From IMG/VR virus record IMGVR_UViG_3300035204_001773, positions 32,001-96,000 of that record: a DNA stretch of 64,000 bases, one strand, 5' to 3'. This document shows positions 2,092 to 62,694 of this stretch, piece after piece (positions within the stretch are counted from its first letter, which is position 1; the number at the start of each line of letters is the position of its first letter). The position numbers and the translations under genes were made by a program. A model generated the notes under the pieces. It was not told the DNA's origin. It did not search any database and saw only the letters and a list, made by a program, of their open reading frames with translations. Source of the stretch: a virus.

Positions 2092-2107
2092 TAATTATTA
2101 CACTTTT
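2092..2107 (-). promoter_or_regulatory. Candidate phage late-promoter motif (AAAAGTGTAATAATTA)
   Basis: Shares the GTGTAATAWT core with the intergenic site upstream of the giant tape-measure gene; lies in a divergent intergenic gap. Confidence 0.4.
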
Positions 2108-2139
2108 CTAAATATTTTTTCCGTTTTACTGTCTGATTA

Positions 2140-6809: not shown

Positions 6810-6835
6810 CATTCATTGTAATTTTATGCTATAAT
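6806..6835 (+). promoter_or_regulatory. Sigma70-type promoter upstream of dnaB
   Basis: TTGACA (6806-6811), 18-bp spacer, extended TGcTATAAT (-10 at 6830-6835); ATG at 6844. Confidence 0.8.
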
Positions 6836-6843
6836 GATTTATC

Positions 6844-19352: not shown

Positions 19353-19353
19353 T

Positions 19354-37166: not shown

Positions 37167-40100
37167 TTACGATGTCCTATTTGGCGGAAAATAACCGCCT
37201 CCCTTTAAAATATTACCCTTACTCCAGTCTATAACCGCTTGCGCAATTGCATTCGGAATAGCTTGTACCGTACCGTCAATGTTTACATTTATATTAGCTG
37301 TTTGATTGCTATCTCCTCCAATGTTTCTAATCTGCTCTATCTCGTCCTTCCGACTTCTTCCTTCTAGGTTTGCGGAAAGACTCTCTGCTGCCTTGGATAT
37401 TTCTTCTCCGAATGATGTTGCGGCCATGTTTATTTGTTGTGTCGCAGCTTCAAAATTCGGAACGAAGCCTGCTGCTCTACCACTTGAGAAGTTGGGAACT
37501 CCTCCTGTTCTTGACCCATAAGTATTTACATTTGCGCCTTCTGATCTTGCTCTACTGATTCCTTGATCCGGCCCCTGTGGTTCGTCAATTCTATTAAAGA
37601 CGCCTACTCCGAAGTTGGGGACATACCCCTTGGCTGCGATACCTTGGATTCTTAAATTATTACTCTTAATAGCGGGGTGCTCTGCTACGTATACTGAGCC
37701 TTCCGCGTCTGATTTAGAATACCCTCTACCCATGAGAGCGGTAATCTCTCTATCTTTTGCTTCTTCTAATTGGCTAGAGAAATTTGGTATAAACCCTCTA
37801 TGTTTTCCAGCGCTACCAGAGCCACGGGCAAAATTAGGGATAAATCCTTTAGCTAAATTTTGTCCTCCCTTTACTCCCCTTCTTCTTCTCTCTTCATCTA
37901 AAACGGTTTTGGCCATTTTTAGATTTGCCAATTGTTCTAATTCTGCATTAGACATTCTCGCTAGCGCATCATCTAGAACTTGACCCGACTTGCCCGCCGT
38001 TGGATCCATTTGAGCTATCTCACCATAAACCTGACCCTGAAATTCGCTAACTTCTGACGGGTCCACATATCTCCACTGCTTCTCTTCCTTACCCGGAATC
38101 GTCAGAAGCTTCATCCATTCGCCCGTTTCCGGATCTAGCTTCCATTCGGACGCTTGGTCTCCCTTCCCGACCTTTACTGTTCCTCCATCCCTAAAGAAGC
38201 TATTCTTTCTTGTTCCTCCCAATTCGCCTTTGCTATCTCTACCCTTCACGCCCACACCCCTAGACCCAACTCCTTCGCGAACAACGTAACCTTCAATTCT
38301 GTCCCTTGCATTCCCCACGGCTTTATTAAAACCGCTCTGACTAAATCCCTTGGTGCCCACTCCAGTTGCCGTTTCTTGTCTCTGCCATTCTTCCGCGTAG
38401 GCTGAAGAAGTAGTATTCAACCACTTTCTAAACGCCGGTGTTTGCATATCTTCTTCGGACATACCAGTTTGCTTTGCCATATTAAAAAGGAAATCTTTAG
38501 GCGGTATATTAGCGTCCTTCATCAACTGGAACATCTTCATCGCTGCTAGGTTATCTGGATCGTCTTCGTATCCCACCGAGGTTCCCCCCGCGAGCTTCTC
38601 CATCTCCATGCCTGTTCCGACCATTAGTTGGCCAAATAATTTAGTATCATCAGCCCTCTTCTTCTGTCCAACGGTTTTACCTTGATTACCGAAGGCTTGA
38701 GTGTTTTCGTATTGATTAAAATAGTCGCCTACCCGTTTTTGGGTAATCTGGTCCCTAATTTCTCCCGCTATTCTTTGCGCTTGAGCTATGCCTTCCGGGC
38801 CAGTGTTGAATAATGCTCCGGCCGCTTGGGTTTTTTGCTCGGGTGTTAAATCTTTACCAAATCTTGTAACTGCATCTGCTAAAAATGCTTTATCAGGGCC
38901 CGCTCCCGGGCCAACGGTCAAGTCGCTGACCAACGTCTTTTGCCAATATTGTTTAGATGCTTCAAGAGCAGCTTTTAATTTTTGATTTTTTAGCTTAATT
39001 TTTTCAAGTTCTTTTGCGTAACGCTTTTGCATCGCAGGATCATTAGTTGATTTCATAGCTTGCTGTAATTGAGCCGCCTCTTGCCCACCAGCAAGCATTT
39101 GCAAAGCAACCCCTTTGAATCGTTGTCCGTATGGACTAGCCGCCATAAGGGGATCTATACCCGCTGCTTCAAACAAGGTTGAAGGTTTCCCGGGTTGCCC
39201 CGTTAGGGGATCAACGCTTTGGCCGCCTCCAAGGCCGAATTCGGTCATTAATTGCGGATTTTCTAAAAGCGTGCCTCCAGCAAAACCACCTGCGCCCGCC
39301 ATAGACAGATCGGCCAAACTTACATCAACCCCCGAACGATCTATAGAAGCTTTGCCCCCACGAACAGATTCTGCTTGGACCATGTCACTATGACGATTTC
39401 TTTCCGCTCGCAATGCGCTTTTAACCTTGGCCATTGACATTTTTTGGCCAGCATATTGGCTCAATCCCAAGCTTTGTAAAAGAGTATCTGGAACTGCCTG
39501 TGAGGAATCAAGCCCTTGACCTCTAATCTCTAAAGCTCTTAATTTTTGCTGCGCAACCTGTTGACGAGCGAAAGATTTAGCCATATTGTCGCTAGCTCTT
39601 TTCTTCTGATCCTCTAGCATGTCTCTGTATTTTTCTTTTTTCTCTCCTCTAGCGCTTTGATATTTACCCCGCACGTAATCTAATGCGTGACCACTCGCTT
39701 TACCATACGTAAATCCTTGTTGAGATATTCCCAGTGAATGCTCTAAAGCTTCTTCTGTATTAATCCAGTTCTCTGCGGTAATAGCATTTCTGTCTCCACC
39801 TCCCCAGTCATCAATCATCATTTGCTTCATGTTACCAATTTTGAAGTCTATGCCGAATCTCTGAGCGAAGGCCACCTGATTACCTGCTATTTTTGCGAAC
39901 CTAGCAGCGGCTGCCTGTTTTACCCATGGCGGATTATTTGGAGCTTCTTTAAATTCTTGGGCTGCGTTTTGTATGGACCACAACATTTTCTTCCTCATTG
40001 TTTTCCTCTGTGAGTCTTGCAGTTTACGCTTTAATATGGGATCTTTTGTTCTCCGTATCATCTCTGCATTACCTTGGATATCCATAGACAACATTTGCCC

Positions 40101-46100: not shown

Positions 46101-49100
46101 GAAGCGCTTATCACCCGGTTTAATTTCTATATCATTCATCTGTTGAGACAACATTTTGGAAAATTGATCAGCCATCTCGGGCGGCAAACCACTAAACGCA
46201 TTCATTGCGAGGCGACTTGGGCTAACGGTTACGCTTTTGCCCGTTGCAAGAGCCTTATTGTAAGCCTCTCCCAGACCACCCATAACCTGCCTATGTGTCC
46301 GCTTCATCCATGCCCTTTTCGAGAATCCGCCCTTCGTTGACGTTTTTGCCTGATCCATCAAGCTTTTGTCAGGAGCAGTATCGCCCAGTCTCTGCCTCAT
46401 GAATTCATCAGGAGACATAGTACCCATTCTATGCTCTGCTGCGCCACCCTTTTGGCCGACGCCTGCTTGTTGTTGAGACAACTCCACTTGCGCACCCATG
46501 CTTTTCAATAAGTATTGACTCGCTGCATTCTTTGATGCTTCACCACCCAAGTTTTGCGCTGCCTTGCCACTCTCTAATGCGTGAGTCATTTCATGAACTA
46601 TTAAACCTCTTTGCACATTTCGTGCCATTTGACCAGCGCCACCTTTTTGTTTTCCTGCTTTTACAATTTCATCATCAACCACCACCTGATTCTTCGTGGC
46701 ATCCCACCAGCCACCCCAGCGTGCTCCACTTGCACCACCGGGTTTGTTAGTCGTATTTTGCTTAGTTATATCCCAATTTTGTTTAACTGCATTAGCGTAA
46801 TCTTTTTTGATACTTTCCCCAAGAACCCCAGTGGGAGATCCAGTTTTCTTGGCCATATTTTGCTCGTATAGATTACTTAATTTTATTGATTCGAACATGG
46901 CGTATCTTTTAGACATACCACCGACAAGTTTTCCTATCTTACCTTCTGCAAAATAATTAGTAAATAGCTTTCCGTGAAGTTTATTCAAAGCGCCTGCGCC
47001 CATACCTTTCACCTTGTCTACGATAGGCCCGCCAATTTTTCTAGCACCTTCCGCCATTGACGACTTCCAACTTCTCCACGTATCTTTTATATTAAAGGGC
47101 ATTTTATACCTAGAAGCCATGTTCATGGCTTCTTTAATGCTCATGCCAACGCCGCCAAGTCCCGCAGATGTTTTCTTTCCTAAATTAGTAAACCACTTAG
47201 CCGTGTTCCTGACCCAATTATTTTTAGAATCCTTCTTTACTTGTGCGGCTTTCTTCGGTTTTTTCTGCTTCACCTTTTCTGGTGCGTCTGTTAAAGCGCT
47301 CCCCATAAAATAAGGAGACAAGCCTGCGTAAAATGCGTTCATAGCTCTCCAACTATGCTCTTCTTCTCCTGCTAGATTAATCGCTTGTCCCCCCATGGGA
47401 GTATCCAATACCATTTGTTTTCGCGAACCACCAGTGCCAAGGGGTCCACCGCGTGCGCCAAACCATGTACTATGATGACCACTTCTTCTATCTAGAACAT
47501 TAGCTACGCCGCCTCGCACGCTTGTGCCACCGGGCAAACTATCAATGAGGCCCCTAGATCTCCCTTTTAATAGATCGTCGTAAAGATCTAGCATGTCAAG
47601 TTTTTCTTGGTTTGTGAATTTGGTACCACCCATTCCAAGCTTGTTCCATATATCCGCTTGGTATACTTGCCCGAAGCTACCCGTGCCCGGAACAAATCCA
47701 CCCGCTGCGAACGACATGGGAACCATTCCCTGCGCGTAAGTTTTTCTTCCGTGGTCTACGCGCAATTTACCTCTATCTTGTAACCATTTTCGTTGATCTT
47801 CATGAAGAAATCTTCCTGTAGCGGGATCAAACCCAACAGGACGACCTCTTCCAGCGGGCATTAGGCTTGCTCCGCTAAGATTAGAGGGGTCTCCAAGAGT
47901 TCCATCAATTTTAGGGTCACGCCCACCGGTTTGGCCAAACGCCCATATCGCCGTCCTTTCGTCTAGCCCGCCACTGTCACCAAGAGCACCCAACTGGTAG
48001 GCAGGTATACCTGTTTCTAACGAATACAGATAACGATACGCTCTTTTCCAATCCTTGGGGCCATAATATTGTTGTATATATCTTCTAGTTAATTCTCTCT
48101 GCGCCCTTGGATCTCTTCCTGTTTCTGGATCATTCCTTAAACTTGTAAGATATTCTCTTATTGGGGATAAATTAGCATAAGTATTCCCATCCGAACCCTT
48201 GACAGGTTTATGAGCACCACCACGACCCATCATTTCTTGCTTTGTCCTAGCTTTAGAAGCGGCGGCTATACCCCCCAATGAGCCAGCGTTGATTCCCCAT
48301 TTATTTGCTTCTTCTGACCATTTTTCTTTTGGGTTATTTTTTTGAATGAAAGAGTACATCAAGCGTGTCCACTCTCCGGAGTTTTTAGCTATTCCATTAC
48401 TCTGTAGCATGCCATGAAACTCATTAATGGAAGTTCCAGAAGAAACAGATACGCTTGGCTGCGAGGGTGTTCTCAAATGGTATACCTGATTTCCCATTTT
48501 TCTAGCTCCTCGAACAAATTCGCTTCTAGTTCTTCCTCCTTGTTCGGGGATATGCAAAAAGCCGGGGAGATTTTCTTTTGGCTGCCCTAATGTAAAAAAT
48601 TCGTTTTGCCCTCGAAACAAACTAAAGTTGCTAAGATTACCTTTTCTGATTTCTTCTTGTTCTGATTTAACTCTGTCAATAAAATCCTTTGTGTTATTCA
48701 TGCCTACAGCGCCCATAGGCATGTTCAGAGCGATCTGAGGAGTTAAATTTATACCAGTACTACTTTTGATCCTCTGTTTAACGTTATCATATTTTTGCCA
48801 ATCGAGGACATTGTCTGATGTGAGCTCGGTGTGATTAACAATATCTGGATTTCTAGCAATAGCATCATGCCATTCAGAGTACCACTTTTCTAATTTGTCA
48901 TATTTTACTTCTACTTTTCTAAGCCCATCTGTTGAAGGAAGCAAATCAGGAGATGGAGCAAAAACCTCAATTGGAGAGGGGGATCCTCCAGCAGCCAAGC
49001 TAGGAACCTTATATGTAATTTTTTCTCCGGGGGTATACCCATCAGAAGCTACCGTGTAAGGATTAATTCCCCAAGCCGCTTTTGATCTTTGCTTGTGTGC

Positions 49101-52100: not shown

Positions 52101-55100
52101 TAACTGATCCGAAGAAATATCAGAGTCTACCCTTTCTCTTCTAACGTCGGATAAACCCGCCGCTCCTATACCCACTTCTTCTCCAGCACTTCTCATACTT
52201 GAGGCGGTCACCGTGGTTTTACCAGAAAGATTCGCTTTATCGCCTTCTACTTTTACTAATTCGCTTTCTACCTGCTCTAGTTGTGCCAACGTAACATTAT
52301 ATTCGTCAGAACCTTTCTTCATTGTTTTCAAGGTTTTAACTAGAGCCTTCACCTCTTTTTCCATCGTTTTAACAGCTGGTTCTAAACCGCTCAACGGCGA
52401 ACCGAGAACACCTTTAGTTAGGTGTCCTCCGGCACGCACAGCTGCACCCATTTTACCCGACGTAAGAGTGGTTTCTTTTTCTTTTAACCAACGAGCGAAT
52501 CCACCTTCTTCGTCATCATCAAGGAAATTTGGAATATAACCAGCCGCAGCTATTCCATAAGTGTTGGGATTTTTGCCTTCTTTTAGAGCTCGACTAACGC
52601 CTTGTCCAAGTCCTTTCTTTTCGTCAATATCGTTACCAACACCAAGGTTCAATGGGTTTGCGGTAATTCTTTTATCTTGCCCCAAGAAAATATGACTCTT
52701 CGCTTCTTGTCTGGAGATGTCTTCTCTAACTGATAAGGCATTTATTTCCCTTTCTTCTGCCTTTGCAACTTGCTCTTTTATACCCGGTGTCCATGCACTT
52801 CTTGTAAAATGTCCATCTGCAAAATTAGGAACATAACCTCGTGCGCCGTGTATTCCTCCAATTCTTTTTACTTCTTGTTCGCTTCTTGGAGAATGATGTT
52901 GCCATCCTCCCGCTGAAATTTTTTGTAATTCTTGGTCCGGACCATTCCAATGTTGTACATCGAAATAGATTGCTTTTTTCATTGCAAGATCTATAAGTCT
53001 AGCAACCGCTTCTTGTCCATTTCTGCCAGCGCCCAACTGCAAGCCAAGCCACCTCCGAGTCTTTTCTCGATTCATTAGGCGTTTCGTGCCATGTTTGGTT
53101 TCTCTTAAACCGCTCGACGCCTCACTTCTACGAGCAAGTTCACCTGCTGTGCCGGGGCTACCATCTGCAGGAGGAATCTCCGGCGCAGAACCGACCTCTT
53201 CGTCACCGGGTGTTAATTCTAACATGGCTCCGCGATGTTCTCCCCATCGTTGTGCGACACCCTCACTTCTACTTAATGAAGCAACTCCGGGTTGAGACTT
53301 TGTTCTAACGCTTTGATCAGCGAGCCACCCCTCAAAAGATCTTAGTGATTCTTCGGGAGTATTTCCTTCTCCGGCTTGTCTAGTTGTTGTTACGGTCTCT
53401 TGTTTCCAATCTGACCAACCCACGTTAGTGTAGGACATATCGGGTCTGCCATCTTCACCATATTGATATTCTCCTTCTTTGTATCCCCGAAAAAGATTTA
53501 GGAAGTTTGGTATGAATCCTAAGCTCTTCATATTAGCTAAATTTTCTGGCTTAGCTAATTGTAAAATTCTTTCTACATCATTTATATTTGTAATTTTATC
53601 AAAGCCCTCATCTAAAGTAGGAGCTTCAAAACGATTAAACATACCTTCAATAGCTGCATCTGGTATAGTTTTGCTACCGCCCTTGGCTTTTGTTAGTTCG
53701 GCTCTCCTCGCTGTAATCGCCTTAACAGCTGATATAACTTGCTGTTGTTTTTCGTCTGGTAATTGAGATATATCACTAAAGACTACCGCCTGTTTTTCGT
53801 ACCCTTTAATATCATTCTCATCGAACATATTTAAAGACATTGATCGTTCTCTTGCGGACATGTTTGTCATATCTACAGAAATATCTTTACCTGACTTACC
53901 AGCTTCCGCAACCCTTTTGTCAAATTTATTTTGAATCTCGCTTCTAACTTGGCCTATTTTATCCCAAATTAATTTAGGTATCCAAGGCTGTTGTTCAGCT
54001 TTCTCTTCATCGTATTCTGGATTTATAACTGCTTTGCCATATTTAGGATGAGTTTGACCTAATCTAGTTCCCGCTGCGGGTGTCTCAAATGAGTCGTCAT
54101 AAGTCAGTCCCATGTCTTTAGTTACTTGATTGACTATGTCATCTCTACTTACGATGAAATCTTTCGGCGCGTTCTCTTTGAGCCAAGTTGATTTACCAAC
54201 CCCCGGAGCACCGACAAGTGTTCTTAATTTTCTCGCAAAGCTCGGGACATGTCCCCTACCAAATCCCATACCGCCCATGTCACCCGCTAATGCGCCCATT
54301 AATTCTCTATGAGCTTCTTGAGAAGACTCGCTTCGCCCATCATTAACGTCTCTCCCGTTAAATTTACTGCCCGGTCCCGCATTTATAAATCCACCTTCCC
54401 CAGCATGAGATTCTCTTCTTCCTTTCAAATAAGCAGCGGCTTGAAAATGAAATCGCGTCCCGGCCCTTGGATCATAGGTTGCGGTCTTGCCTCCATCAGC
54501 ACTAAAGGCAACCGAATCATTTTTCAAATCTTGTCCTCTTGCCCACTTTTCAAAATTTGGGACAAAACCTCCTGCGCGACCCTTGCCCGTGCCCCCGGCT
54601 CGTTTGTCCACGCCCCCCATCTGTAAATATTCCGCCTGTTCAGCCTCTGATAGATCACGCATTACTTGCTTCCGAATCGCCGCTTCTTCGTCTTGCTGGC
54701 TCATTCCATAAAGATTCACGCCTTTCCGTCTTAACGTCTGGCGTGCTTTTATCTCAAGTTGGTGAAAATGCTCCCTTCTATTCTTCCTATTTTTCTCGGT
54801 TTCTTCTCTTGTTGGCTGGATATTACCTTGTTCATCTATCGCGCCCAAACTCCTAAACTCAGGTTCATTACCCGTAAAGACAGCCTCTATAAAGCTGTGC
54901 CCCTTTGCTCCTATGCCAAAAATATTATCCCCACTAATTTTTGGACTATATTCATTAAAGAATTCTTTAAGGCTGTTAATAGAATTCTTGATCTCGTCTT
55001 CGTTCAACAAGTTGCCAAGGTTTCTTGCGCTCATCTTTTGGCTTGAGGGACGCTTGTTATCTTGTTTCGGAATAAATGATTTAATGGTTCTTTTAAGTCT

Positions 55101-58100
55101 TGCCCATAGAGTTTCTTCTTTTCTTATGAGATCTTTGTCAACCTCATTGCCCGTTGGCGTTGTGCCTTTAAATCTTTCAAAGAAATTCGGAATATTACCG
55201 GCATATTTCGCTACTAATTTTTTCTTTCCAATCCGCGCGATATGATCTTTATGCAGATTATTCGCTCGCACAAGAGCTTGATCATATGCGGGATCCCCTG
55301 ATTTACCCGTTTGTAAAGCACTGATTTCAGACGAATTCAAACCCATTTCATAAAGATAATGAGGCTCTTTCGATTTAAGGTCATCTGAATCAAAATCAGT
55401 AGCTTTGATCTCTAGCCCCTGCATAGGCATCCCCGGGGTAAACATACCTCCAAATTCTTCTTGTATCCTTTCGTTAGATATATCTATTGGTTCTTCGCCA
55501 GCTGTATAAGGTTTTCCCGAGACTGTATCTTGTGGTGGCGTTCTTCCTCCTACCGTCGTCTTTTGCGCGGTAGTCATTCCATGTATCATGCCTTCCCATA
55601 ATGCTCCAGCAAGATCCCGTTTTGTCCCAACTGGTAACTTCATGCCGCCTACAGCGAATTTGCTTTGCAACTTGCCAGTTACTTGTGCTAACTGATTCTT
55701 AAAGTCTGGATCTTGAAGAGCAGCCTCTTCATCACCTCCGTATGATTGCTTAACCGTCATCCCGGGTCCAGCTTCGTCTATAAACCAAGTTCCCATATTT
55801 GGTAGGACGGTCCCAGAAACTTGTTGCTCTACTTTATCATAGAACCTATCTCTTATTCCTGAATCAAATACTTTCGGATCAAGTCCATAACGCTGAACTC
55901 TCGATGATTTGTGTCTAGAAGATATTTCCGAAGGCTCTTCTGCTGATCCACCAGACTGTCCCGGCGCTCTTGTGCCCATCGTGAGAACTGGGGTATAATG
56001 AGGCGCGCGTTCTCCTTTAGATAAATTTATTACCGTGCCATCTGCTAACGTAATTGTTTTGTCAGCAGCAAAATTAGGCACGTTCCCCCACGCGGCCATA
56101 GCTTGTTTATCTCCCATTGCGCCGAGTGCCGAGCCCTGAGCGCCACTCTTGTCAATATGATCTCTAACCCAACTAAGTTTTCTTTTTGGTCCCGTTCCCC
56201 TATTATCGCTTTCGTGAACGTAAGTTCCTAAGCTCGGCGCGTACCTCCATAAGGCGTTTGCGTCGTAATGATCTATTTGGCTTTCCTTCTTCTGCGCAGA
56301 CCTTAAAGAAGTCGATAGCCCCTTAGTAGTACGCATTGAGCTAGCGAAACTTGGAACAAATCCTCCAGCAACGCGTTGACCAGTTGTTGTGTCGATCATG
56401 TCAGGATCAGTAACCACATGCCCCTTACCCATCTCTCGAGCTTTCTTTAATAATCTTACGTGCTCTTGGGATACGCTTTTCCCCTCGCGGCTACGATCTA
56501 TTACTTTCTTATCTGGCCCGAGGAGAAGATGATAGTTTCCTTCTGTTCTATCTTCGAAGTTGGGAACAAAACCTCCTGCTACTCTTAAACGAAGCCCTCT
56601 GGCGTGACTAATAGCATCCTCGGGGCTCTTAAAAGTTTGACCTGTCGGGTTGTATTTCCATCCTCGAGTTGTTAAAGGGCTATCATAAAGAGACTGAACA
56701 TCATTCATTTCAGTCATTCCCTCAAATGGCTCCTGTCCTTTAGGCCAATGAGGCTTGGGATGTCCTGCGTCCATCAAATCTCGAACCGTTAGCCTTGACA
56801 ACCGAGAAACTTCCTCATCGTACTCGGGGTCGCCGGGATTCGCCGGTAACATAAGATAGCTAGGTCCACCATCGAATCCTCCATCCGGCTTATGATGTTT
56901 TTTCCATCCTGATGGTCGTGCAAAATTTGGAATAAAACCTGAAGCCCTCTTACTCCTTTCTATTCCGCCGGGATTTGCTCCACGGTTAGCGAAAGGAGTT
57001 TCAAAAGTCTGCACTCCCCGAACCCCAGTCATATTTAATCTTTCAATTTCTTCTATATTAGCCTTGGCGTCATCATACAAAACTAACTCGGGACTTTTTC
57101 CTGCTTCTTTGGCCTTTTTGCTCATTCTAGCCATTAGCAAGGTTTTCTTTTGAGCAGCATTTAAATAACGCCATTGCCTACTTCCTTGCCCCTCTGGCCA
57201 TCCATCTTCGCCTAATTTTTCAAACTGGCCATGAAATCTACCGCCTTGAATAAAATCTTTTTTTCTAACAAGGCCTACTTCAAGACCTGTCTCAGGATCA
57301 ATTGTACTAAAGTCTGGATTATCCATAACCTTCATGTCGTTGAACATGGATCCGCTAGTTATAACCCTATCAACATTTACCCCTTGACTTTCGAGTTGTC
57401 TCCTGATTACCGCGTTTGTTCCCTCTCCTTGAGTAATGGCTTGACGTGACCCTGCTCCTCTAGCAGTCGCTACAGTGACTGGTGCTTGTGATGCCTTATA
57501 ATCTTCTCCTCTACTTGTCAGGGTTGACTTCTTTACCGACCAAGGGAATGCAAAAGATCTACTTGGCATATCGGCGGGATATGTGCCAAGATTTTCATCA
57601 TAGTCTTCGAGATTAACTACTTCACCGTCTTCTAAATCTCTGGGCCTTACATAGTTAGGAACAACACGTCTTCCTCTATTTGAGGAAAGAAAATTAGGTA
57701 CGTTACCGCGGAAAACATTATACGTTTTTCCCTTGTGTCTTTTTAAATCCGGTCTTGCTTTTTCTACTTCATCATAGAAAGCGGTATAATCTATGGGCGC
57801 ATCTAACGTTCCCGCTAATTGCTCATGGCTTCTTGCGTCATCCCTGTGAGATGTTGATAGTCTAGATTCCCGTTGACCTCGCACTTCTTCTTGAGATTTG
57901 TCAAGACCAATTAGCCTCTTGCTCATTCCAAGCACGTTACCGAAGAAATCATTATTAAGACTTTCCCCTCCATGAATTATTGCGAACTTATCCATCGCGT
58001 CGAATTGACTCTGGTTAGTTACCAGAACCCCTTTTCCTACGTTGGGTATTTTCTTATCAAGAGCTTTGTTGCCTGATTTCAAACCGGCGAAAGTAGATTT

Positions 58101-61100
58101 CCCTGAGCCAGCTGGCCCCATGACAGTACTCACGGGCTTGCCAGTTTGAAAAGCGTCATAAACCAATTCTTCCCACGAATCTCTGTCCATTTTTGATCTA
58201 TCGAAATCGAGAACACCTCTAGCAAAATTTGGAATCATTCCTGAAGCTTTCAACGCCATACTGCTCGAATCAAACGCTGGAACATGCCCCATGTACTTCG
58301 GTAGAGCATTTATGGAACTAGCTGTTGTCGCTAGTGCTTTTCTAGACTTTCGCTTTTCCTCTTCCTGTCTTCTTGTAAATAAAGCGTGAGAATGCTCCCA
58401 TTGCTCTTTAAATTGCCCCTCGTTAATAAATGAATTTATAGTATCTTTACTTATTTCGCCCCCCTCGTCTCCTGCTGTTCGAGAAAATTCGGAACCATGC
58501 AATAAAGCACCGATAGTTTTATCTACCCTTTCTTTATCCGCTGCCCCCATGTCCCCAGAGAAATACGAGTCTGGATCTAAGCCTTCTAATTCTAACCCAG
58601 CGACTTTTGCTATTGGATTATTTTTTCTTTTAATATTCTCTTTAGATGATAAACCAAGACCTCCGTGTTTCGGGTCTCCACGCCTTATGCCAAACCAATC
58701 TTTAGACCCAGCGGTTTGAACTGTATTAACTATTCTAGAACCAAACTCGGTTGCTTCAAATAATTTATCAGCCATACTATTCATATTACCCTGACTCGTA
58801 CTATTTTTGGCATCTGCTAAAGGAGTTTTCACACCAAAGGTATCAGGGTGCCTAAGCTTGTGATATCCCCCATCTCGCCCTTCCATATAGTCCCATCTAG
58901 TAGAACTAGATTTAGCAAAATCAGTATCATCATAAACTAAAGCATCCACAGACCCCTCGAACGCTCTACCAACTGCTTGAGCCATTTGCCCTGTTCCAAC
59001 AACTTTATTTACATATTTTTTGATATCAGCCTCGTCAGCTGGCGGTTTAAAATATTGATTTGCATATCTTGATACTTCTGCTCCAATTTGATTATTGATT
59101 GACTCTTGCGCCTCAGAACTATCCGGTGCTCTTTTCGCTGACAAAGCAGGAAAAGAAGCCTTTAAAGAAACCCCATAAGCTCCGAAGGTCTGTTGTGCTT
59201 TATCATTAAATTTTACATTATAAACCCCCGGAGTTGGTGTGCGCTTACCCCCACCTTTATCAGGCAAGAGTATGGAAGCCATGTGATGAGCATTGACTAC
59301 TCCTCCGGGTAAAATATCTGCTTGACCGCTTGCTCTTTTGAGTTGCTTTTTAATTGGGTCTAATTTTTCATTAGTTAAATCTAAATAAGTTCTTGGAATT
59401 TTTAATTTCTCTTTCTCTGCTGCCATAAAATTAGGCACACTGCCAACTGCTGTAAATTTATTAAACTCACTCTTCTTAACTTTCTCAATTGTTTTTTCTA
59501 AAACTTTTTGTACCTGCGGTTTATACTTTGGTAAAATAGCTGAATCTCCACCCTTAAGCCCCTTGGGTTTAACGCCGTATCTCTGAAACAGTTCTTTAGC
59601 AGTAAACTCCTGCTCACTAGAATTCATTATTACGCGTTTACCATCGATCGTGCCCCTAGACATATGCGCTCTAGTTCCAGAGGCTGCCCCCATAGCTCTG
59701 GCCATCTTTGTTTCTTCTTTATATGGGTCATAAAAGAAGTTAGGAATATTGCCCGAGGCATTCCCGCCGCCGCCTTTCTTCCCGGGGACATCCCAACCAC
59801 CGCCCTTCATAGGGAACATAACTCCTCCGCCAAAACTTCCAGTAGAATGCATTGTCTTAGCTAACATAGCAACAATTTTAGCTTGATTCGTCATTTCTCT
59901 ATTCTCTGCTCTTATTTTTTCTAAAAGATCTCTATGAACATCTGCAAGAGATTTTGTACCTCGCATAATTTCTTTTAACATCCTCGGCTCTTCAGCAAGC
60001 AGTGAATTCAATTGGGTTTGAATCCTCTGTTGGTCCGCCATGTGCTTACCTCCCCCGCTAATCGTTTTAAAAGCGTCTACGGCATAAATCCTAAGTTTAT
60101 CAAATAATTTAAACAAAGCCATAATACCCACGGCAAGACCCGGACCTTTTAAAAATTCTCCGAGACCTTTCGACATTCCAGAAGAAAGCTTAGATCCCAG
60201 ACTCTCTCCCGAAGCCCCAAGGTCGGTTGATTCTAAAACTGTATTTATGCCCGAAAGAACTCTTTTTATAGCGGGGGCAAGAGCATCTTCTCCCAGCTTA
60301 GAACCGGCTTGTTTTAAATTAGCCATGGTTCTATTAATTAAAGTGCTAAAGCTTTGGTTCAATTTTTCATTTCTCGCAATAGCTTCATCGGTAGCAGAGG
60401 TGGCAATACCTAAAGCGTTTTCATATATTGAAAATTCTTTTGTTAAATCACTCAAAGAAGCTTTTAAAATATTAATTTGGAATACGCCACCAACTAATTC
60501 AGCAATCTGAGCTTGTTGCGATTGCGCTAGGCTATCGTACTGCCTCGCTAAATTTTGCAGCACTTGCATAAGAGGCATCATTTGCCCGCTTTGCTTTTTG
60601 GTTTGCACGCCAATTTCTTCAAGTGCCTCTAAGACTCTAGGCCTTTGTATTCTTGTGAAAATAGTTTTGAACGCGTTACCAATAACATTACCACCACGAG
60701 CAGTAACTTGTTGAGTGGCCGTTATAACTGCAAGTAGTTCTTCAAATTTTACTCCCGCTCCAGCAGCCGTGCTTCCTACTCTTCGGATTGCTTCAGCAAG
60801 GTCACCAGAACTCACGGCAAAAGCCTGATCAACCTGAGCCATCTTACTAATTATTTCTGTAGAATTTAGAGCCGCCCTTGAATAGCCGTTCATAGCAGCA
60901 GTAATCGCGTTTACAGCAGCGGCGGCATCTAATCCAGAAATTCTTGTTAGTATAAGAGCGTCTTGGGTCCTTTTAAGGGTTTCTTGCATCCCAAGACCTT
61001 GTCTTGCGAATTCTCCAGCAGCAGTAGCCACTGTTTGGAAACTTTGCGCTGTGTTTCTGGCTACATCAAATAATGAATTTCCAAATTTAGTAAGTTGGTT

Positions 61101-61400
61101 TTGGCTAGTATTTAAAATTGTATTAATTTCTGTTAAAGATTTTTCAACCTCCACAGCGGAACTTACCATTTGTCTAAACGCATCTTGAACACCCATAATA
61201 AGACCAGCGGATGCGCCAAAGGCAAGTACACGAGCATTAGAAGCGGCGAGAGATTTTTCAAATTCACCCAGATCCCCCTTGATGCGACCAAGAGGAGCGC
61301 CATCGAAATTTACAGACACAGGTACGCGACTTAGCTTCTTAAGCCTCTTTTCGAGAGGGCTTAAATCACCATGTACCTTGACTGTTACTGATCCGGGCAT
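37167..61400 (-). CDS. Giant (8077 aa) tail tape-measure-like polyprotein with multiple embedded enzyme domains
   Basis: Uninterrupted 24.2-kb ORF. The first ~500 aa match a TP901-type TMP core (VEKSLTEINTIL...GEFARQG...ALILTRISGL...GNAFKTIFTRI). Has coiled-coil/TM blocks, a TMP-like C-terminus (NINVNIDG) and internal enzyme motifs. Confidence 0.85.
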   Translation of the reverse strand: MPGSVTVKVHGDLSPLEKRLKKLSRVPVSVNFDGAPLGRIKGDLGEFEKSLAASNARVLAFGASAGLIMGVQDAFRQMVSSAVEVEKSLTEINTILNTSQNQLTKFGNSLFDVARNTAQSFQTVATAAGEFARQGLGMQETLKRTQDALILTRISGLDAAAAVNAITAAMNGYSRAALNSTEIISKMAQVDQAFAVSSGDLAEAIRRVGSTAAGAGVKFEELLAVITATQQVTARGGNVIGNAFKTIFTRIQRPRVLEALEEIGVQTKKQSGQMMPLMQVLQNLARQYDSLAQSQQAQIAELVGGVFQINILKASLSDLTKEFSIYENALGIATSATDEAIARNEKLNQSFSTLINRTMANLKQAGSKLGEDALAPAIKRVLSGINTVLESTDLGASGESLGSKLSSGMSKGLGEFLKGPGLAVGIMALFKLFDKLRIYAVDAFKTISGGGKHMADQQRIQTQLNSLLAEEPRMLKEIMRGTKSLADVHRDLLEKIRAENREMTNQAKIVAMLAKTMHSTGSFGGGVMFPMKGGGWDVPGKKGGGGNASGNIPNFFYDPYKEETKMARAMGAASGTRAHMSRGTIDGKRVIMNSSEQEFTAKELFQRYGVKPKGLKGGDSAILPKYKPQVQKVLEKTIEKVKKSEFNKFTAVGSVPNFMAAEKEKLKIPRTYLDLTNEKLDPIKKQLKRASGQADILPGGVVNAHHMASILLPDKGGGKRTPTPGVYNVKFNDKAQQTFGAYGVSLKASFPALSAKRAPDSSEAQESINNQIGAEVSRYANQYFKPPADEADIKKYVNKVVGTGQMAQAVGRAFEGSVDALVYDDTDFAKSSSTRWDYMEGRDGGYHKLRHPDTFGVKTPLADAKNSTSQGNMNSMADKLFEATEFGSRIVNTVQTAGSKDWFGIRRGDPKHGGLGLSSKENIKRKNNPIAKVAGLELEGLDPDSYFSGDMGAADKERVDKTIGALLHGSEFSRTAGDEGGEISKDTINSFINEGQFKEQWEHSHALFTRRQEEEKRKSRKALATTASSINALPKYMGHVPAFDSSSMALKASGMIPNFARGVLDFDRSKMDRDSWEELVYDAFQTGKPVSTVMGPAGSGKSTFAGLKSGNKALDKKIPNVGKGVLVTNQSQFDAMDKFAIIHGGESLNNDFFGNVLGMSKRLIGLDKSQEEVRGQRESRLSTSHRDDARSHEQLAGTLDAPIDYTAFYDEVEKARPDLKRHKGKTYNVFRGNVPNFLSSNRGRRVVPNYVRPRDLEDGEVVNLEDYDENLGTYPADMPSRSFAFPWSVKKSTLTSRGEDYKASQAPVTVATARGAGSRQAITQGEGTNAVIRRQLESQGVNVDRVITSGSMFNDMKVMDNPDFSTIDPETGLEVGLVRKKDFIQGGRFHGQFEKLGEDGWPEGQGSRQWRYLNAAQKKTLLMARMSKKAKEAGKSPELVLYDDAKANIEEIERLNMTGVRGVQTFETPFANRGANPGGIERSKRASGFIPNFARPSGWKKHHKPDGGFDGGPSYLMLPANPGDPEYDEEVSRLSRLTVRDLMDAGHPKPHWPKGQEPFEGMTEMNDVQSLYDSPLTTRGWKYNPTGQTFKSPEDAISHARGLRLRVAGGFVPNFEDRTEGNYHLLLGPDKKVIDRSREGKSVSQEHVRLLKKAREMGKGHVVTDPDMIDTTTGQRVAGGFVPSFASSMRTTKGLSTSLRSAQKKESQIDHYDANALWRYAPSLGTYVHESDNRGTGPKRKLSWVRDHIDKSGAQGSALGAMGDKQAMAAWGNVPNFAADKTITLADGTVINLSKGERAPHYTPVLTMGTRAPGQSGGSAEEPSEISSRHKSSRVQRYGLDPKVFDSGIRDRFYDKVEQQVSGTVLPNMGTWFIDEAGPGMTVKQSYGGDEEAALQDPDFKNQLAQVTGKLQSKFAVGGMKLPVGTKRDLAGALWEGMIHGMTTAQKTTVGGRTPPQDTVSGKPYTAGEEPIDISNERIQEEFGGMFTPGMPMQGLEIKATDFDSDDLKSKEPHYLYEMGLNSSEISALQTGKSGDPAYDQALVRANNLHKDHIARIGKKKLVAKYAGNIPNFFERFKGTTPTGNEVDKDLIRKEETLWARLKRTIKSFIPKQDNKRPSSQKMSARNLGNLLNEDEIKNSINSLKEFFNEYSPKISGDNIFGIGAKGHSFIEAVFTGNEPEFRSLGAIDEQGNIQPTREETEKNRKNRREHFHQLEIKARQTLRRKGVNLYGMSQQDEEAAIRKQVMRDLSEAEQAEYLQMGGVDKRAGGTGKGRAGGFVPNFEKWARGQDLKNDSVAFSADGGKTATYDPRAGTRFHFQAAAYLKGRRESHAGEGGFINAGPGSKFNGRDVNDGRSESSQEAHRELMGALAGDMGGMGFGRGHVPSFARKLRTLVGAPGVGKSTWLKENAPKDFIVSRDDIVNQVTKDMGLTYDDSFETPAAGTRLGQTHPKYGKAVINPEYDEEKAEQQPWIPKLIWDKIGQVRSEIQNKFDKRVAEAGKSGKDISVDMTNMSARERSMSLNMFDENDIKGYEKQAVVFSDISQLPDEKQQQVISAVKAITARRAELTKAKGGSKTIPDAAIEGMFNRFEAPTLDEGFDKITNINDVERILQLAKPENLANMKSLGFIPNFLNLFRGYKEGEYQYGEDGRPDMSYTNVGWSDWKQETVTTTRQAGEGNTPEESLRSFEGWLADQSVRTKSQPGVASLSRSEGVAQRWGEHRGAMLELTPGDEEVGSAPEIPPADGSPGTAGELARRSEASSGLRETKHGTKRLMNREKTRRWLGLQLGAGRNGQEAVARLIDLAMKKAIYFDVQHWNGPDQELQKISAGGWQHHSPRSEQEVKRIGGIHGARGYVPNFADGHFTRSAWTPGIKEQVAKAEEREINALSVREDISRQEAKSHIFLGQDKRITANPLNLGVGNDIDEKKGLGQGVSRALKEGKNPNTYGIAAAGYIPNFLDDDEEGGFARWLKEKETTLTSGKMGAAVRAGGHLTKGVLGSPLSGLEPAVKTMEKEVKALVKTLKTMKKGSDEYNVTLAQLEQVESELVKVEGDKANLSGKTTVTASSMRSAGEEVGIGAAGLSDVRRERVDSDISSDQLSRSFMMSQIGMSLGEIVPEAKGVTDTLVGMQNSFSAIVAVLPGTFGRVVGGAAALAVGIDKATAWIRDIAMNAKDMAKDAETAKEKYTEINDAMSQYMSTWDQLNSAKQDGAAPFETMRRLDKKLLDLMGSITAIDEEAGMAMGMAVSANQLKEAYEKARQRLEEDRNQKVAGDNLTKRQQQGNAGVLKTLAEGLTLGMMDFGNPYETGGTFGTKRSKIDNKAAEEDAKEVLSSIGAFSNRDAMTKLAGGPGLKSAGDDASAIISILENAGLSLNANAQQGIQNLEGKGGLTILAKEMDKLIQAQKENSDKHDESNAAREKARKQSEKLKEALDQAKQGFVEAQRNFNDALMFVTKIKDIEGGARRRVDIEGLKGGMGMMRRGTMGASAFGLQVKTAGIRNDQFTKAQDATRGARGKQLSEFQSELTKLQEKKKGSQADDIGRISQEFTAMMEKNKDLSATETADAIKKFTERSDVTSALGPKLINRLVRSSREEGQKVLRQLKELSINTQAQIDIAKQAFEFEKQERQRKRDVSMLGGMDGLLDPDKQTADIEGFLEGLIRMQKTQEAGADFKGQQAKGTAEMLRGLKGLMGGSLFGGREEAQVKAGGGVETAEEVQRRLQIEFPDLMKFRGDFIKQMGKDRSNQLNMMADQAEAAGAPRGVVAGMRREAGRAEESVANVFDEEFMTGAIDKQQLQQLKSIDGRLGSLPKDLASAINFDPQAALTSASTDMGAARRGVQGAQDAYDQFEREGDREANKKKLKDAKRDADMQVGQLAMDPQMMAAMGGMDAKQRKRTLKNIFETEGAGSAADIANMLKAPGAGRKFGISSTHARGLQGVFDQAAREQRDGEDSPFSIGQRVKKPRVATQTAKTLDENLQAHQKLGQLQAQKRRIENELQAADERDRGPIRARLRQTESEIEALREKQSRAAHGFVPGGGGLSASIERSQALEGGYRAGAIKNMKISGVGNVTYNSAESVVSVPGISQPFINPPEFSKAGKAHKQRSKAAWGINPYTVASDGYTPGEKITYKVPSLAAGGSPSPIEVFAPSPDLLPSTDGLRKVEVKYDKLEKWYSEWHDAIARNPDIVNHTELTSDNVLDWQKYDNVKQRIKSSTGINLTPQIALNMPMGAVGMNNTKDFIDRVKSEQEEIRKGNLSNFSLFRGQNEFFTLGQPKENLPGFLHIPEQGGRTRSEFVRGARKMGNQVYHLRTPSQPSVSVSSGTSINEFHGMLQSNGIAKNSGEWTRLMYSFIQKNNPKEKWSEEANKWGINAGSLGGIAAASKARTKQEMMGRGGAHKPVKGSDGNTYANLSPIREYLTSLRNDPETGRDPRAQRELTRRYIQQYYGPKDWKRAYRYLYSLETGIPAYQLGALGDSGGLDERTAIWAFGQTGGRDPKIDGTLGDPSNLSGASLMPAGRGRPVGFDPATGRFLHEDQRKWLQDRGKLRVDHGRKTYAQGMVPMSFAAGGFVPGTGSFGQVYQADIWNKLGMGGTKFTNQEKLDMLDLYDDLLKGRSRGLIDSLPGGTSVRGGVANVLDRRSGHHSTWFGARGGPLGTGGSRKQMVLDTPMGGQAINLAGEEEHSWRAMNAFYAGLSPYFMGSALTDAPEKVKQKKPKKAAQVKKDSKNNWVRNTAKWFTNLGKKTSAGLGGVGMSIKEAMNMASRYKMPFNIKDTWRSWKSSMAEGARKIGGPIVDKVKGMGAGALNKLHGKLFTNYFAEGKIGKLVGGMSKRYAMFESIKLSNLYEQNMAKKTGSPTGVLGESIKKDYANAVKQNWDITKQNTTNKPGGASGARWGGWWDATKNQVVVDDEIVKAGKQKGGAGQMARNVQRGLIVHEMTHALESGKAAQNLGGEASKNAASQYLLKSMGAQVELSQQQAGVGQKGGAAEHRMGTMSPDEFMRQRLGDTAPDKSLMDQAKTSTKGGFSKRAWMKRTHRQVMGGLGEAYNKALATGKSVTVSPSRLAMNAFSGLPPEMADQFSKMLSQQMNDIEIKPGDKRFLNKDGSFSRQKLFKMVKGQAGYQRMIKEIGNRVQLGSIDEEYKTYSTQRMAERMGAKGNWVMAKDFLKVAVPHLLREKNVHPSQLKERFMNFAREKFGRVPKTTALSIHGEKNMGTIQADSNKPALKMSEKFFNSRAGRMLTGLADLRKSPLYRGVKFTGGQISDLSKKFTNLSRSPILKALRGYKQDFSRGKRFTGKMKFDEIKNQKEQIKSRNRMTRIGASVGSAESLAKSIKSQVSKATGSVKTNFWNQVGAFKHGYTGGAKGAFVATDSALRTEGLGKGAAASVQHLKSALGQGQQFAKNLVNMQKSPILNKIIEGHAGAKGMLGDFKHGFKSGNLRKFNIAMPGAPEVKASGAQKLGATFKNLSTSLVDGIGRGKDNFKTWSKSKLNSMKARFNQTELVKGYRFGAGQPTGRQHGGFQGKVEHSRMRKFGAGIKGGQDLVKKLQHQIATGLVDAGETVKSSPVGKAVGSVHKAAASFFDFNRSPLVSKGKKFRGDFSRARRFFGKLSGPQRNSLMAMPEFKSRSLATKLGIKTIQAGDFLKNLFGTPKQAAQLQAATSGTKIDTSGLDKKKPTLAERLRKPYDNFKRGRRFMQKISPEERQNQRAQMKTRDAYTKAGMKSVLAMDYMKNLKKKLGSIPGRLKEAGGKSFADIKKGWKAGALNLDKPERMKFSKEGSGYRGRLVRNTIPMEQLKKGPAANNMSRSEWLARRARIGAGVTKEWLKNLPSRFGGLMNKHLQKSPVMEGFKIGRQGGRGEEMRRLFPDARTGLPGGKREGMFGALGRMTGRFASQLPLVAKGENFWTGKRSLVPSWITEGAREQAMTPKERKAHERKEAAKDRRLARRALQDPNVLKDQLGLTDDQIKLLQKKGLLKKLGSARSFDKVIASLAEQTKSAKKGHGKNRLRIRELSAMNKAANFSVGRSANDGAGGKWSGSVRAPSSRVSSLAAILTDRSMSRAGGGPSARGNVVELSQQNVERMKALDPDFKQEGGKARAKLETNARSSDPKVAGKAKFALANRGYKAGAMGLKGVGKGAMGFGNPHDVNIRKAVAQFEKTRARIEKKVGNGSMSYSKGQNMLKAAWTKHVEGGKNTPLDKVAALPPDKSGRSGAQKLGRLMMAKAGPDSGLLEKQLQAIEKDPGRRSADATKQRNAQLGRLQADALKTEQNMKVKADQELLARRLDAASKDLAKGIEGRRDGKVKTAMKTIGKLSHKIGLYRPEQGGLMSRTLFGNNYKQMWQMGKQKWGFGGGKFGGGTIGRDLRGGAVGIGAGLATGWIGKYLMQNENKTIAKIGEGIATYGGYGVGTYMIMRGLEKEAQQRAAKELAEGAIEQSVKSGSKKSAVKKAADFFTDASDKGLRGAAYKKAGEGLDKVAKKGGIWKSVKASKSGQWTKGMAKKFGGSSAIRGLGVGIVGQMIGSHFVNKAYAKEMEGLQGRMEKGGVDGADATVEMHQLQLQKDRVATGTRLGIDILAMGPALLAGGPVGAAIWVAMTAATLADHFRRQKDMKADEAGAKINAAIARAGEKDHGIRQQLASALWDEVLTQPGSQNRFGLSLNFGEGENAALIYDAEKAASTQKLMSNLIQTGTTASADSSALIDMEKELLRISPEEMRNMSDRLEHYTGKSGKELAAMEPSERAEYIKNNADLAWYDKLSSLGMGDDPEGFAQRTAALFAQQAEMRKASGRFASLEELDSGKLPEATAKRNKILSEMKDIPGLPDEVKMMFKVGEEMNKLDMREEATKAQFKHLEREQMGQSWYEGIDKTMMPGRMQSNIDAQNEVAGRKRDLKAIAEQSRAGRMGGKYHKAMQEGNLVDAEEMLKRGGANEAAIKAWREKMKKMPAMKEKIEARETQLVSQQYVDKNTGKTIKKTQLYKAADGKTYYMSGGRRVEAITRGSFVQDLSATGAIKVEEGDDGESIVRDHRGNILARGSGAKLMDQLHKNIFTGKEGKGDSRLTRKELSEVEIERKMDAKKYGTQGNQRLGVISRAGQTKDMGQMLSMDIQGNAEMIRRTKDPILKRKLQDSQRKTMRKKMLWSIQNAAQEFKEAPNNPPWVKQAAAARFAKIAGNQVAFAQRFGIDFKIGNMKQMMIDDWGGGDRNAITAENWINTEEALEHSLGISQQGFTYGKASGHALDYVRGKYQSARGEKKEKYRDMLEDQKKRASDNMAKSFARQQVAQQKLRALEIRGQGLDSSQAVPDTLLQSLGLSQYAGQKMSMAKVKSALRAERNRHSDMVQAESVRGGKASIDRSGVDVSLADLSMAGAGGFAGGTLLENPQLMTEFGLGGGQSVDPLTGQPGKPSTLFEAAGIDPLMAASPYGQRFKGVALQMLAGGQEAAQLQQAMKSTNDPAMQKRYAKELEKIKLKNQKLKAALEASKQYWQKTLVSDLTVGPGAGPDKAFLADAVTRFGKDLTPEQKTQAAGALFNTGPEGIAQAQRIAGEIRDQITQKRVGDYFNQYENTQAFGNQGKTVGQKKRADDTKLFGQLMVGTGMEMEKLAGGTSVGYEDDPDNLAAMKMFQLMKDANIPPKDFLFNMAKQTGMSEEDMQTPAFRKWLNTTSSAYAEEWQRQETATGVGTKGFSQSGFNKAVGNARDRIEGYVVREGVGSRGVGVKGRDSKGELGGTRKNSFFRDGGTVKVGKGDQASEWKLDPETGEWMKLLTIPGKEEKQWRYVDPSEVSEFQGQVYGEIAQMDPTAGKSGQVLDDALARMSNAELEQLANLKMAKTVLDEERRRRGVKGGQNLAKGFIPNFARGSGSAGKHRGFIPNFSSQLEEAKDREITALMGRGYSKSDAEGSVYVAEHPAIKSNNLRIQGIAAKGYVPNFGVGVFNRIDEPQGPDQGISRARSEGANVNTYGSRTGGVPNFSSGRAAGFVPNFEAATQQINMAATSFGEEISKAAESLSANLEGRSRKDEIEQIRNIGGDSNQTANINVNIDGTVQAIPNAIAQAVIDWSKGNILKGGGYFPPNRTS
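37452..37847 (-). repeat. C-terminal cluster of five G-x-[VI]-P-N-F repeats
   Basis: GFIPNF 37830, GFIPNF 37779, GYVPNF 37611, GGVPNF 37488, GFVPNF 37452. Confidence 0.92.
52524..59753 (-). repeat. Dispersed peptide repeat G-x-[VI]-P-[NSA]-F: 15 copies plus 1 degenerate copy
   Basis: Copies (lowest coordinate) at 59736, 59427, 58272, 58224, 57690, 56922, 56556, 56346, 56070, 55182, 54552, 54237, 53502, 52821, 52524; VVPNY at 57651. Codons vary between copies, so conservation is at the protein level. Confidence 0.92.
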
Positions 61401-62691: not shown

Positions 62692-62694
62692 GCA

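Follow-up and report, generated by a model that had tools for sequence, protein, structure and literature searches.

Tape measure proteins (TMPs) are usually seen as rulers and channel formers, at most with a wall-degrading domain. Here we analyze a TMP gene at positions 37167..61400 (minus strand) of a 64,000-nucleotide stretch of IMG/VR record IMGVR_UViG_3300035204_001773; this stretch, hereafter called the window, comprises bases 32001-96000 of one 109,211-base contig. The gene is a single open reading frame (ORF) for a giant, cysteine-free protein of 8,077 amino acids (aa). Known TMPs embed one or two cell-wall hydrolases, whereas the number of unrelated modules here reaches 13 or more, with enzymes of a cytoplasmic type among them, each module being fenced by one invariant peptide. 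Alignments and structure models make it very probable that this is a modular cargo, fenced by an invariant, unstructured, and TMP-specific peptide at which modules are exchanged.

Several described systems share parts of this design. The polyproteins of picornaviruses and potyviruses are served by one site-specific protease each (3C and NIa, respectively), and viral polyproteins carry one short peptide at every junction, as here; their cognate protease is known, whereas none was found in our case, in which the bearer is a structural ruler. Polyvalent proteins of phages and conjugative elements, reportedly described by Iyer, Burroughs, Anand, de Souza, and Aravind in 2017, are likewise said to be giant chains of unrelated, often exchanged domains that are thought to enter the recipient with the DNA. 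They are said, however, to be associated with the head and the DNA and to have MuF, ART, zincin-like, methylase, and helicase domains as hallmarks, and neither a junction peptide nor residence in a TMP reportedly belongs to their description. In the window TMP, MuF, ART, zincin-like, methylase, and SNF2 helicase domains had no Pfam match (E ≤ 0.05 for the whole protein and E ≤ 1 for ten cassettes, thresholds that divergent members may escape). Its one firm enzyme domain is AAA_33, and GNAT and PolyA_pol/tRNA nucleotidyltransferase domains occur in its relatives. In the Photorhabdus virulence cassettes and other extracellular contractile injection systems (PVC/eCIS), a short disordered tag precedes each payload in a tail-like tube (PMC11495950); there, an AAA ATPase loads the payloads, which are separate proteins, whereas the TMP modules are a covalent part of the ruler.

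Among TMPs proper, cutting has been shown for T5 and lambda only (PMC12617516). T5 pb2, which has an embedded enzyme domain, is cut between ruler and enzyme, after R1127 and between a hydrophobic stretch and the metallopeptidase motif, and both fragments are retained in the tail (PMC10038345). Lambda gpH loses a C-terminal piece of ~14 kDa from a Gly-rich region, with site and protease unknown, and an aromatic/Gly motif occurs twice near the cut-off part (PMC12617516). These are the [FY]ATGG motifs to which a preliminary description of the window had referred, and they are indeed present in gpH (F-H-F-A-T-G-G-F at 733 and R-G-Y-A-T-G-G-Y at 778).

The tape measure protein and its junction peptide

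The N-terminal region of the protein (aa 1-549; 59754..61400, minus strand) is conserved and, as the preliminary description had proposed, TMP-like. It matches PF10145 (PhageMin_Tail) at residues 114-301 with 103.6 bits against a cutoff of 33.2, and nineteen PHROG tape measure families match residues ~40-410 (best E value, 3.7e-54). The order of genes around the TMP is kept in 55-66 related loci, and the neighbors match no Pfam or PHROG family. These matches show the ORF to encode a genuine, very large TP901-1-type TMP of an uncultured marine phage. TMPs of the TP901-1/SPbeta type (PF10145) are alike in their N-terminal domain, in proline-poor stretches with hydrophobic segments, and in having no cysteine. 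The nearest cultured TMPs, those of Bacillus phages 2S-4 (3,081 aa) and BUCT082 (2,297 aa), are also cysteine-free and carry no copy of the junction motif. Cysteine is absent from all 8,077 residues of the window TMP and occurs 21 times in 456,561 residues of its family, compared with 0.7-1.4% in neighboring ORFs, and the scarcity extends to the enzyme modules within the TMPs. The absence of cysteine is thus a general TMP trait that is here extended to captured enzyme domains, and its near-absence from the whole chain fits unfolded threading through the tube and the periplasm.

The preliminary description had listed 20 copies of a peptide, G-x-[VI]-P-[NSA]-F, three truncated G-x-V-P copies (4033, 4558, and 4568), and irregular spacings of 12 to 385 aa within clusters, all of which were recovered at exactly those residues. 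In shuffled versions of the protein, the pattern occurred 0.03 times on average and at most once (300 shuffles). The copies, all on the minus strand, fall into two clusters. The first runs from GNIPNF (copy 1; aa 550; 59736..59753) and GSVPNF (copy 2; aa 653; 59427..59444) through GHVPAF (copy 3; aa 1038; 58272..58289), GMIPNF (copy 4; aa 1054; 58224..58241), GNVPNF (copy 5; aa 1232; 57690..57707), GFIPNF (copy 6; aa 1488; 56922..56939), GFVPNF (copy 7; aa 1610; 56556..56573), GFVPSF (copy 8; aa 1680; 56346..56363), GNVPNF (copy 9; aa 1772; 56070..56087), GNIPNF (copy 10; aa 2068; 55182..55199), GFVPNF (copy 11; aa 2278; 54552..54569), GHVPSF (copy 12; aa 2383; 54237..54254), and GFIPNF (copy 13; aa 2628; 53502..53519) to GYVPNF (copy 14; aa 2855; 52821..52838) and GYIPNF (copy 15; aa 2954; 52524..52541). 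The second, near the C terminus, consists of GFIPNF (copy 16; aa 7852; 37830..37847), GFIPNF again (copy 17; aa 7869; 37779..37796), GYVPNF (copy 18; aa 7925; 37611..37628), GGVPNF (copy 19; aa 7966; 37488..37505), and GFVPNF (copy 20; aa 7978; 37452..37469).

The consensus derived from 158 copies in the 15 largest proteins is [AS]-x-G-(F/L/Y/H/M)-[IV]-P-N-F-(A), with G in 149/158 and N in 142/158 copies (P and F, present in 158/158, are fixed by the search pattern). Upstream flanks are rich in Gly, Lys, Arg, and Ala, downstream flanks are variable, and Y replaces the final F in some lineages. Among 159 nonidentical TMPs, G-hydrophobic-[VI]-P occurs 902 times, versus 25 times in shuffles, and is followed by NF (687 times), NY (91 times), or SF (23 times). 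A six-frame scan of the 109-kb contig located the complete motif in no real gene besides the TMP, and the motif lies within the TMP ORF in 77 related loci, with a second ORF holding one copy in only three of them.

The 18 coding bases are only 68% identical among copies and use all four Gly, all four Pro, both Asn, and both Phe codons, much as the rest of the gene does. Because synonymous codons are free to vary, selection must act on the peptide and not on a DNA repeat. These values also bear on the idea that the peptide is an evolutionary scar, maintained through module exchange by recombination at this very sequence and without a function in the protein. Homology does stop exactly at the motif, as would befit such a scar; nevertheless, so short and divergent a nucleotide stretch is too little for homologous recombination, and selection is plainly on the peptide, making a scar very unlikely.

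The motif copies coincide with boundaries between homologous segments. In an all-against-all BLAST search of 159 TMPs, 35-36% of internal alignment ends lay within 10 residues of a motif, compared with 3.6-3.7% for random positions, a contrast that should be read as a pattern and not as a probability, given that BLAST alignments are nonindependent and that the motif itself lengthens each of them. Left ends clustered on the G, and right ends clustered on the F or the next three residues. For example, the cassette at residues 1488-1615 is 47% identical to the cassette at 1252-1383 of a 3,673-aa relative, with homology ending at both motifs, and the kinase cassette described below matches one in the TMP P0002 from three residues before the motif. 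Hidden Markov model (HMM) envelopes obey the motif as well: the copy that begins at residue 2383 ends at 2388, and the phrog_6931 and AAA_33 matches start at 2390 and 2395, respectively.

Structure predictions led to a similar picture. In an AlphaFold model of a basal A-X-B region (see below) built from a 25-sequence alignment, all four motifs lay in segments with a predicted local distance difference test (pLDDT) score of <50, and module X reached 70-90. In a model of module B of the window TMP (residues 2850-2965; 63-sequence alignment), a compact alpha/beta core (pLDDT, 79-93) was flanked by motifs with pLDDT scores of about 30 and about 50. In each of the two models, the fold that follows starts 3-5 residues past the F, and a longer loose stretch lies ahead of the G. 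None of the six modeled copies was spanned by a predicted fold, which would have spoken against a linker. The proposal in the preliminary description that enzyme folds begin within a few residues of the linker was borne out for the kinase (2-7 residues), whereas an ART reading of the PNF|LNLFRG cassette received no Pfam support at E ≤ 1.

A location that is always at a domain boundary, 2-5 residues before the next fold and behind a longer flexible linker, would also suit a passive joint, namely, a structural hinge or folding insulator that lets modules fold independently in a narrow lumen and requires no reader protein. Ordinary linkers drift, however, whereas six to eight positions are near-invariant here in >900 copies in which synonymous sites vary, and the second, partial unit of the window TMP (see below) works with decayed copies. 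We therefore regard a passive joint as improbable. Overall, the alignments and the predicted structures show a peptide that is selected at the protein level, confined to the TMP, located outside predicted folds, and, in relatives, the site of module gain, loss, and replacement.

The preliminary note had also pointed to truncated copies, one pair of which lies in a segment of separate interest. At aa 4558-4575 (47670-47730, minus strand), the string G-M-V-P-M-S-F-A-A-G-G-F-V-P-G-T-G joins a motif start to a lambda-gpH-like F-A-x-G-G (S-F-A-A-G-G-F-V-P-G at 4564). Basal family members have a similar lambda-like string in their last third, G-G-Y-V-P-G-Y-A-[AT]-G-G-L-V-T-G-G, ~400 residues before the C terminus. 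A relation between module A and the C terminus of lambda gpH was considered but found no support, as no profile homology was detected (hhalign probability, 0.2).

A family of peptide-fenced tape measure proteins and its cargo

A word-indexed search identified 14 giant homologues of 4,567-7,702 aa with 3-17 motif copies each, and 110 further proteins with 405 copies came from an exhaustive HMMER search in which the last 287 residues served as the query. A profile of one conserved module retrieved 156 relatives in IMG/VR, for which the sequences of 80 loci were fetched; the N-terminal 660 aa, used as a single-protein query of IMG/VR, returned one weak locus. No match to the C-terminal 277 aa was found by tblastn among 50,697 cultured phage records. 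Matches in genome bins were limited to two metagenome-assembled genomes (MAGs), one from Flavobacteriales and one from Proteobacteria, both Gram-negative lineages. A literature search for the junction peptide, by itself and alongside tape measure proteins, found no description of it. These comparisons show a large family of TMPs of uncultured aquatic phages in which a cargo region lies between two small conserved modules, A and B.

Most members are about 2,000 aa long and follow a basal plan in which four motif copies, at about 540, 622, 880-910, and 955-985, fence modules A, X, and B and are followed by about 1,000-1,500 motif-free residues. Module A (82 aa) has conserved Y-N-S-A-E and P-G-M-S-Q-P-A-I-M-P-P strings; module X (250-290 aa) has G-x-x-G-x-x-F-E, F-D-F-E, and D-A-K; and module B (73-78 aa) has N-P-x-G-L-G-V-Y-N-T-x-D-E-P-x-G-L-x-Q-G. 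In expanded members, A stays first and B stays last, and extra fenced modules lie between them (10 copies in locus L029 and 14-15 in L007 and L045). Cutting the 159 TMPs at the motif yielded 726 segments of at least 40 aa, which fell into 186 families, including 122 singletons; hence, module number and identity vary widely while the linker persists, a point that the preliminary description had suggested testing. A common origin of A and B was not supported, since hhalign aligned only the motif and eight upstream residues.

By its sequence, the window protein is an extreme form of this plan, with module A, thirteen fenced segments, module B, and then a second, partial unit. Module A, together with the motifs on both sides of it (aa 550-658; 59427..59753, minus strand), is conserved across the family. 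The cargo region that follows (aa 659-2854; 52839..59426, minus strand) consists of 13 motif-fenced segments, i.e., 11 modules of 64-379 aa and two short segments, which are mostly unique to this phage. Its first module is the family-conserved module X (aa 659-1037; 58290..59426, minus strand), recognized by a G-x-x-F-E / D / D-A-K pattern. Module B with both flanking motifs (aa 2855-2959; 52524..52838, minus strand) is the hallmark domain of the family by profile and model. The second unit (aa 3822-4124; 49029..49937, minus strand) resembles aa ~317-644 of relatives, which comprise the last part of the N-terminal domain and a module A (A'). On either side of A', the motif survives only in the decayed forms GFVPGG and GYTPGE, and A' itself is 40-48% identical to other A modules. 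A C-terminal cluster of five motifs surrounds a module B' (aa 7852-7983, 132 residues; 37452..37847, minus strand), as judged from motif positions and homology. The claim that every cassette is motif delimited thus holds for the first cargo region and fails for the ~3,700 residues at 4125-7851. This motif-free stretch (3,727 aa; 37848..49028, minus strand) contains an HExxH motif at 4936, a Lys-rich part at 5000-6300, and a hydrophobic segment at 6572-6604.

Within the window protein, the only module with a family assignment is an AAA_33/PNK-like P-loop kinase (aa 2389-2627; 53520..54236, minus strand), which matches Pfam and PHROG families and lies exactly between two motifs. A second P-loop was at noise level (Pfam, ten cassettes, E ≤ 1), and readings of cassettes as ART, HAD, restriction endonuclease, and zincin domains had no HMM support at the Pfam thresholds given above and amount to motif-level guesses. 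A set of 79 cassettes from relatives includes five GNAT acetyltransferases and a complete poly(A) polymerase/tRNA nucleotidyltransferase, the latter with its head, second domain, and RNA-binding domain. The enzyme modules lie wholly within single cassettes. Comparison of modules A-X-B and B with Protein Data Bank (PDB) folds (Foldseek and VIA-align) gave nothing above noise (best Z scores of 5.7 over 57 residues and of 3.1), and a PDB sequence-profile search gave no match for modules A, X, and B.

As these enzymes need ATP, acetyl-coenzyme A (acetyl-CoA), or RNA, they would act in the cytoplasm. The whole family probably uses the ruler as a carrier for fast-changing modules, and the tRNA-repair-type and acetyl-transfer enzymes among them would have their site of action in the cell. 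Such a cargo fits counterdefense or takeover proteins delivered ahead of any phage gene expression. To this family the window TMP adds one of its largest members, a two-unit layout with decayed motifs, and a seawater source.

One relative contains a gene call of a different kind. On a 191-kb contig in the European Nucleotide Archive, the called protein P0064 (256 aa) starts with M-A-D-G-Y-V-P-N-F and ends 20 residues past another copy. A natural split at the motif was considered, but no conclusion follows, as a relative with 76% identity (L091:4904-18241) has the same stretch inside a continuous ORF of 4,445 aa; P0064 represents either a split TMP or an effect of gene calling.

Possible roles of the junction peptide

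Our preferred, though tentative, reading of these sequences and of the T5 and lambda precedents is that the peptide is the cleavage site of a TMP polyprotein. Most likely, one conserved factor would read the peptide at every junction, and endoproteolytic processing there would take place once the tail is assembled or when the chain is ejected. The modules would ride in the tail lumen and be freed in the host at the start of infection, after a cut like the one between ruler and enzyme in T5 pb2. Candidate cutters would be a host enzyme, a conserved module of the TMP, or an Asn-dependent self-cleavage. We prefer this reading because the same peptide stands at every junction whatever its neighbors, because release would benefit a cargo that looks cytoplasmic, because two TMPs are known to be cut, and because the motifs have decayed exactly where the protein has no fenced modules. 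A broader version, which we consider rather unlikely, makes the peptide a portable signal for cutting and release or for loading: a domain of any kind flanked by two copies within the cargo region would be carried in the lumen and freed in the host within seconds of adsorption, either cut out by a conserved host enzyme or released through Asn-dependent self-cleavage that assembly or ejection would set off. If this were true, the TMP would be a natural programmable protein-injection system, and the peptide would be the first defined processing site for any TMP.

Several points weigh against cleavage. Cleavage, loading, and delivery are putative steps that we infer. The conserved neighbors include no cognate protease detectable with Pfam or PHROGs. 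S or A replaces N in 10% of the copies, which argues against obligatory Asn chemistry at every site, and the residue after the F is weakly conserved (Ala, 40%). Cutting every copy would free A and B as peptides of ~80 residues and would detach the N-terminal domain from the ruler. Moreover, the peptide is near-invariant among phages whose other proteins are 20-45% identical, so a binding site for a slowly evolving partner fits equally well. Cysteine-free chains, which also occur in the motif-less TMPs of the cultured Bacillus phages, are not a specific feature. Neither of the proteases suggested in the preliminary description is a convincing cutter. The internal HExxH domain cannot be the general protease, as it is present in 16 of 159 family TMPs and the 44 basal members with 3-4 motifs all lack it. 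The prohead protease is unlikely, since tails assemble apart from heads and since neither another gene of the 109-kb genome nor a neighbor in 77 related loci carries the site.

A serious rival, nearly as good as cleavage and in accord with the extreme invariance of the peptide, is that the copies are docking sites bound uncut by a repeated or multivalent partner, such as the tail chaperones or the tube lumen, which would keep globular modules competent for assembly, or a host periplasmic chaperone or prolyl isomerase, which would take over the chain as it is ejected in unfolded form; we regard it as possible though doubtful. The copies are disordered, invariant, and numerous, with basic or Gly-rich upstream flanks, which is what docking would call for. 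Two conserved acidic genes directly upstream of the TMP are also in the position of the lambda chaperones G and GT. The nearer one encodes 409 aa (61462..62691, minus strand; 66 related loci), and the next one encodes 374 aa (62695..63819, minus strand; 64 related loci); from this position, they are candidate tail assembly chaperones. The 409-aa protein matched only unnamed viral clusters in the ESM Atlas. A complex prediction of the two proteins with TMP residues 541-665 scored 0.23 against a mark of 0.32, a result obtained without controls that provides no evidence either way. The motif is absent, however, from ~1,000-5,000 ruler-like residues and hence does not serve as a general contact with tube or chaperone.

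The near-invariance of the peptide in a fast-evolving phage family would also suit a conserved host partner, and the only genome-bin matches are to the Gram-negative lineages named above. HK97 infection depends on its TMP plus the periplasmic chaperone FkpA. For binding to SurA, an aromatic residue at the first peptide position is important. The heptapeptide WEYIPNV binds the first peptidyl-prolyl isomerase domain of Escherichia coli SurA with a dissociation constant of 1-14 µM (PMC7195389), and the core of the junction motif, [FY]-I-P-N, resembles this ligand. This likeness, however, comprises four residues, was noticed post hoc, and leaves the aromatic first position without a counterpart. 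Docking also leaves unexplained why the cargo should include enzymes that need ATP, acetyl-CoA, or tRNA. As a cleavage site, the peptide would bear on the 40-year-old question of the processing of TMPs such as lambda gpH; as a docking site, it would point to whatever handles proteins that are ejected unfolded. Either reading suggests a simple design rule for equipping phage tails with engineered payloads.

The 409-aa and 374-aa genes are in the same frame and are parted by a TAA stop and one codon (62692-62697), with no lambda-style -1 overlap.

Ruler portions, sequence continuity, and neighboring genes

Only ~3,000 proline-poor residues of the window TMP appear ruler-like (1-500, 3001-4000, and about 6000-7250). 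At 0.15 nm per residue, this composition would correspond to a tail of roughly 0.45 µm rather than 1.2 µm. After module B, a proline-poor stretch rich in Ala, Lys, and Glu (49938..52523, minus strand), with a hydrophobic segment at aa 3134-3167, is by its composition probably a ruler or membrane part. The C-terminal 94 aa (37170..37451, minus strand), conserved in relatives, are probably a tail-tip anchor by analogy with T5 and lambda. The Lys-rich part at aa 5000-6300 (~42500-46400, minus strand) is strongly basic (Lys plus Arg, 18-22%; Asp plus Glu, 5-10%) and shows recurrent K-S-P-[ILV]-x-x-G and R-F-x-G-K-like strings, and BLAST listed no internal repeat there at E ≤ 1e-3.

The preliminary description had claimed one continuous ORF, and the minus strand is indeed stop-free from 37167 to 61400. 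A chimeric assembly, in which the TMPs of several phages were joined through shared conserved modules, would account for the second partial TMP unit (aa 3822-4124, with B' at 7869), and contigs from the Logan collection end at 60.1-60.7 kb, within the conserved N-terminal domain. Against this, the sequence is present in two seawater metagenome runs from different studies. In the first run, a 49-kb Logan contig spans 41401-60105 with zero differences and a flat depth of ~10.6 and covers both units; in the second, contigs of 13.3 kb and 14.1 kb cover the same interval with zero differences and even depth. Both runs are short-read assemblies and possibly the source of the window itself; their agreement is evidence against a chimera, though no substitute for long reads. 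Since 14 homologues of 4,567-7,702 aa are known on other contigs and the reading frame is open across 24 kb, we consider an artifact scarcely credible.

A third marine run contains a relative at 90-95% identity. In this relative, 170 bases within the cassette after motif 13 (53282-53453) are swapped for 143 others, and 54 bases near the HExxH region (45341-45396) are swapped for 21. The relative also shows short-sided joints at repeats, whose sides of 20-25 letters do not permit an interpretation.

The minus-strand half of the contig is a series of large structural-looking genes, among which the TMP neighbors matched no protease, tube, or chaperone family of Pfam or PHROG. Outside the window, where the presumed head genes give way to the tail genes, a 2,104-aa protein (L003:2289-8603, i.e., genome positions 97289-103603, minus strand) has three Calx-beta repeats and a C-terminal Ig/Hoc-like domain, by which it is classed as a giant decoration or fiber protein. 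A collagen-repeat, tail-fiber-like protein on the minus strand at the contig end (L003:13400-14209), which truncates it, matches PHROG tail fiber families (best E value, 9e-30). The plus-strand half holds a replication module with DNA polymerase III alpha, DnaB, primase, RecA, and a PD-(D/E)XK nuclease, together with sugar-nucleotide and glycosyltransferase genes. The latter comprise a GDP-mannose 4,6-dehydratase, a second NAD-dependent epimerase/dehydratase, and two glycosyltransferases amid the replication genes (3111-4211 and 16409-20535, plus strand), and from these assignments they could form a sugar modification set for DNA or the host surface.

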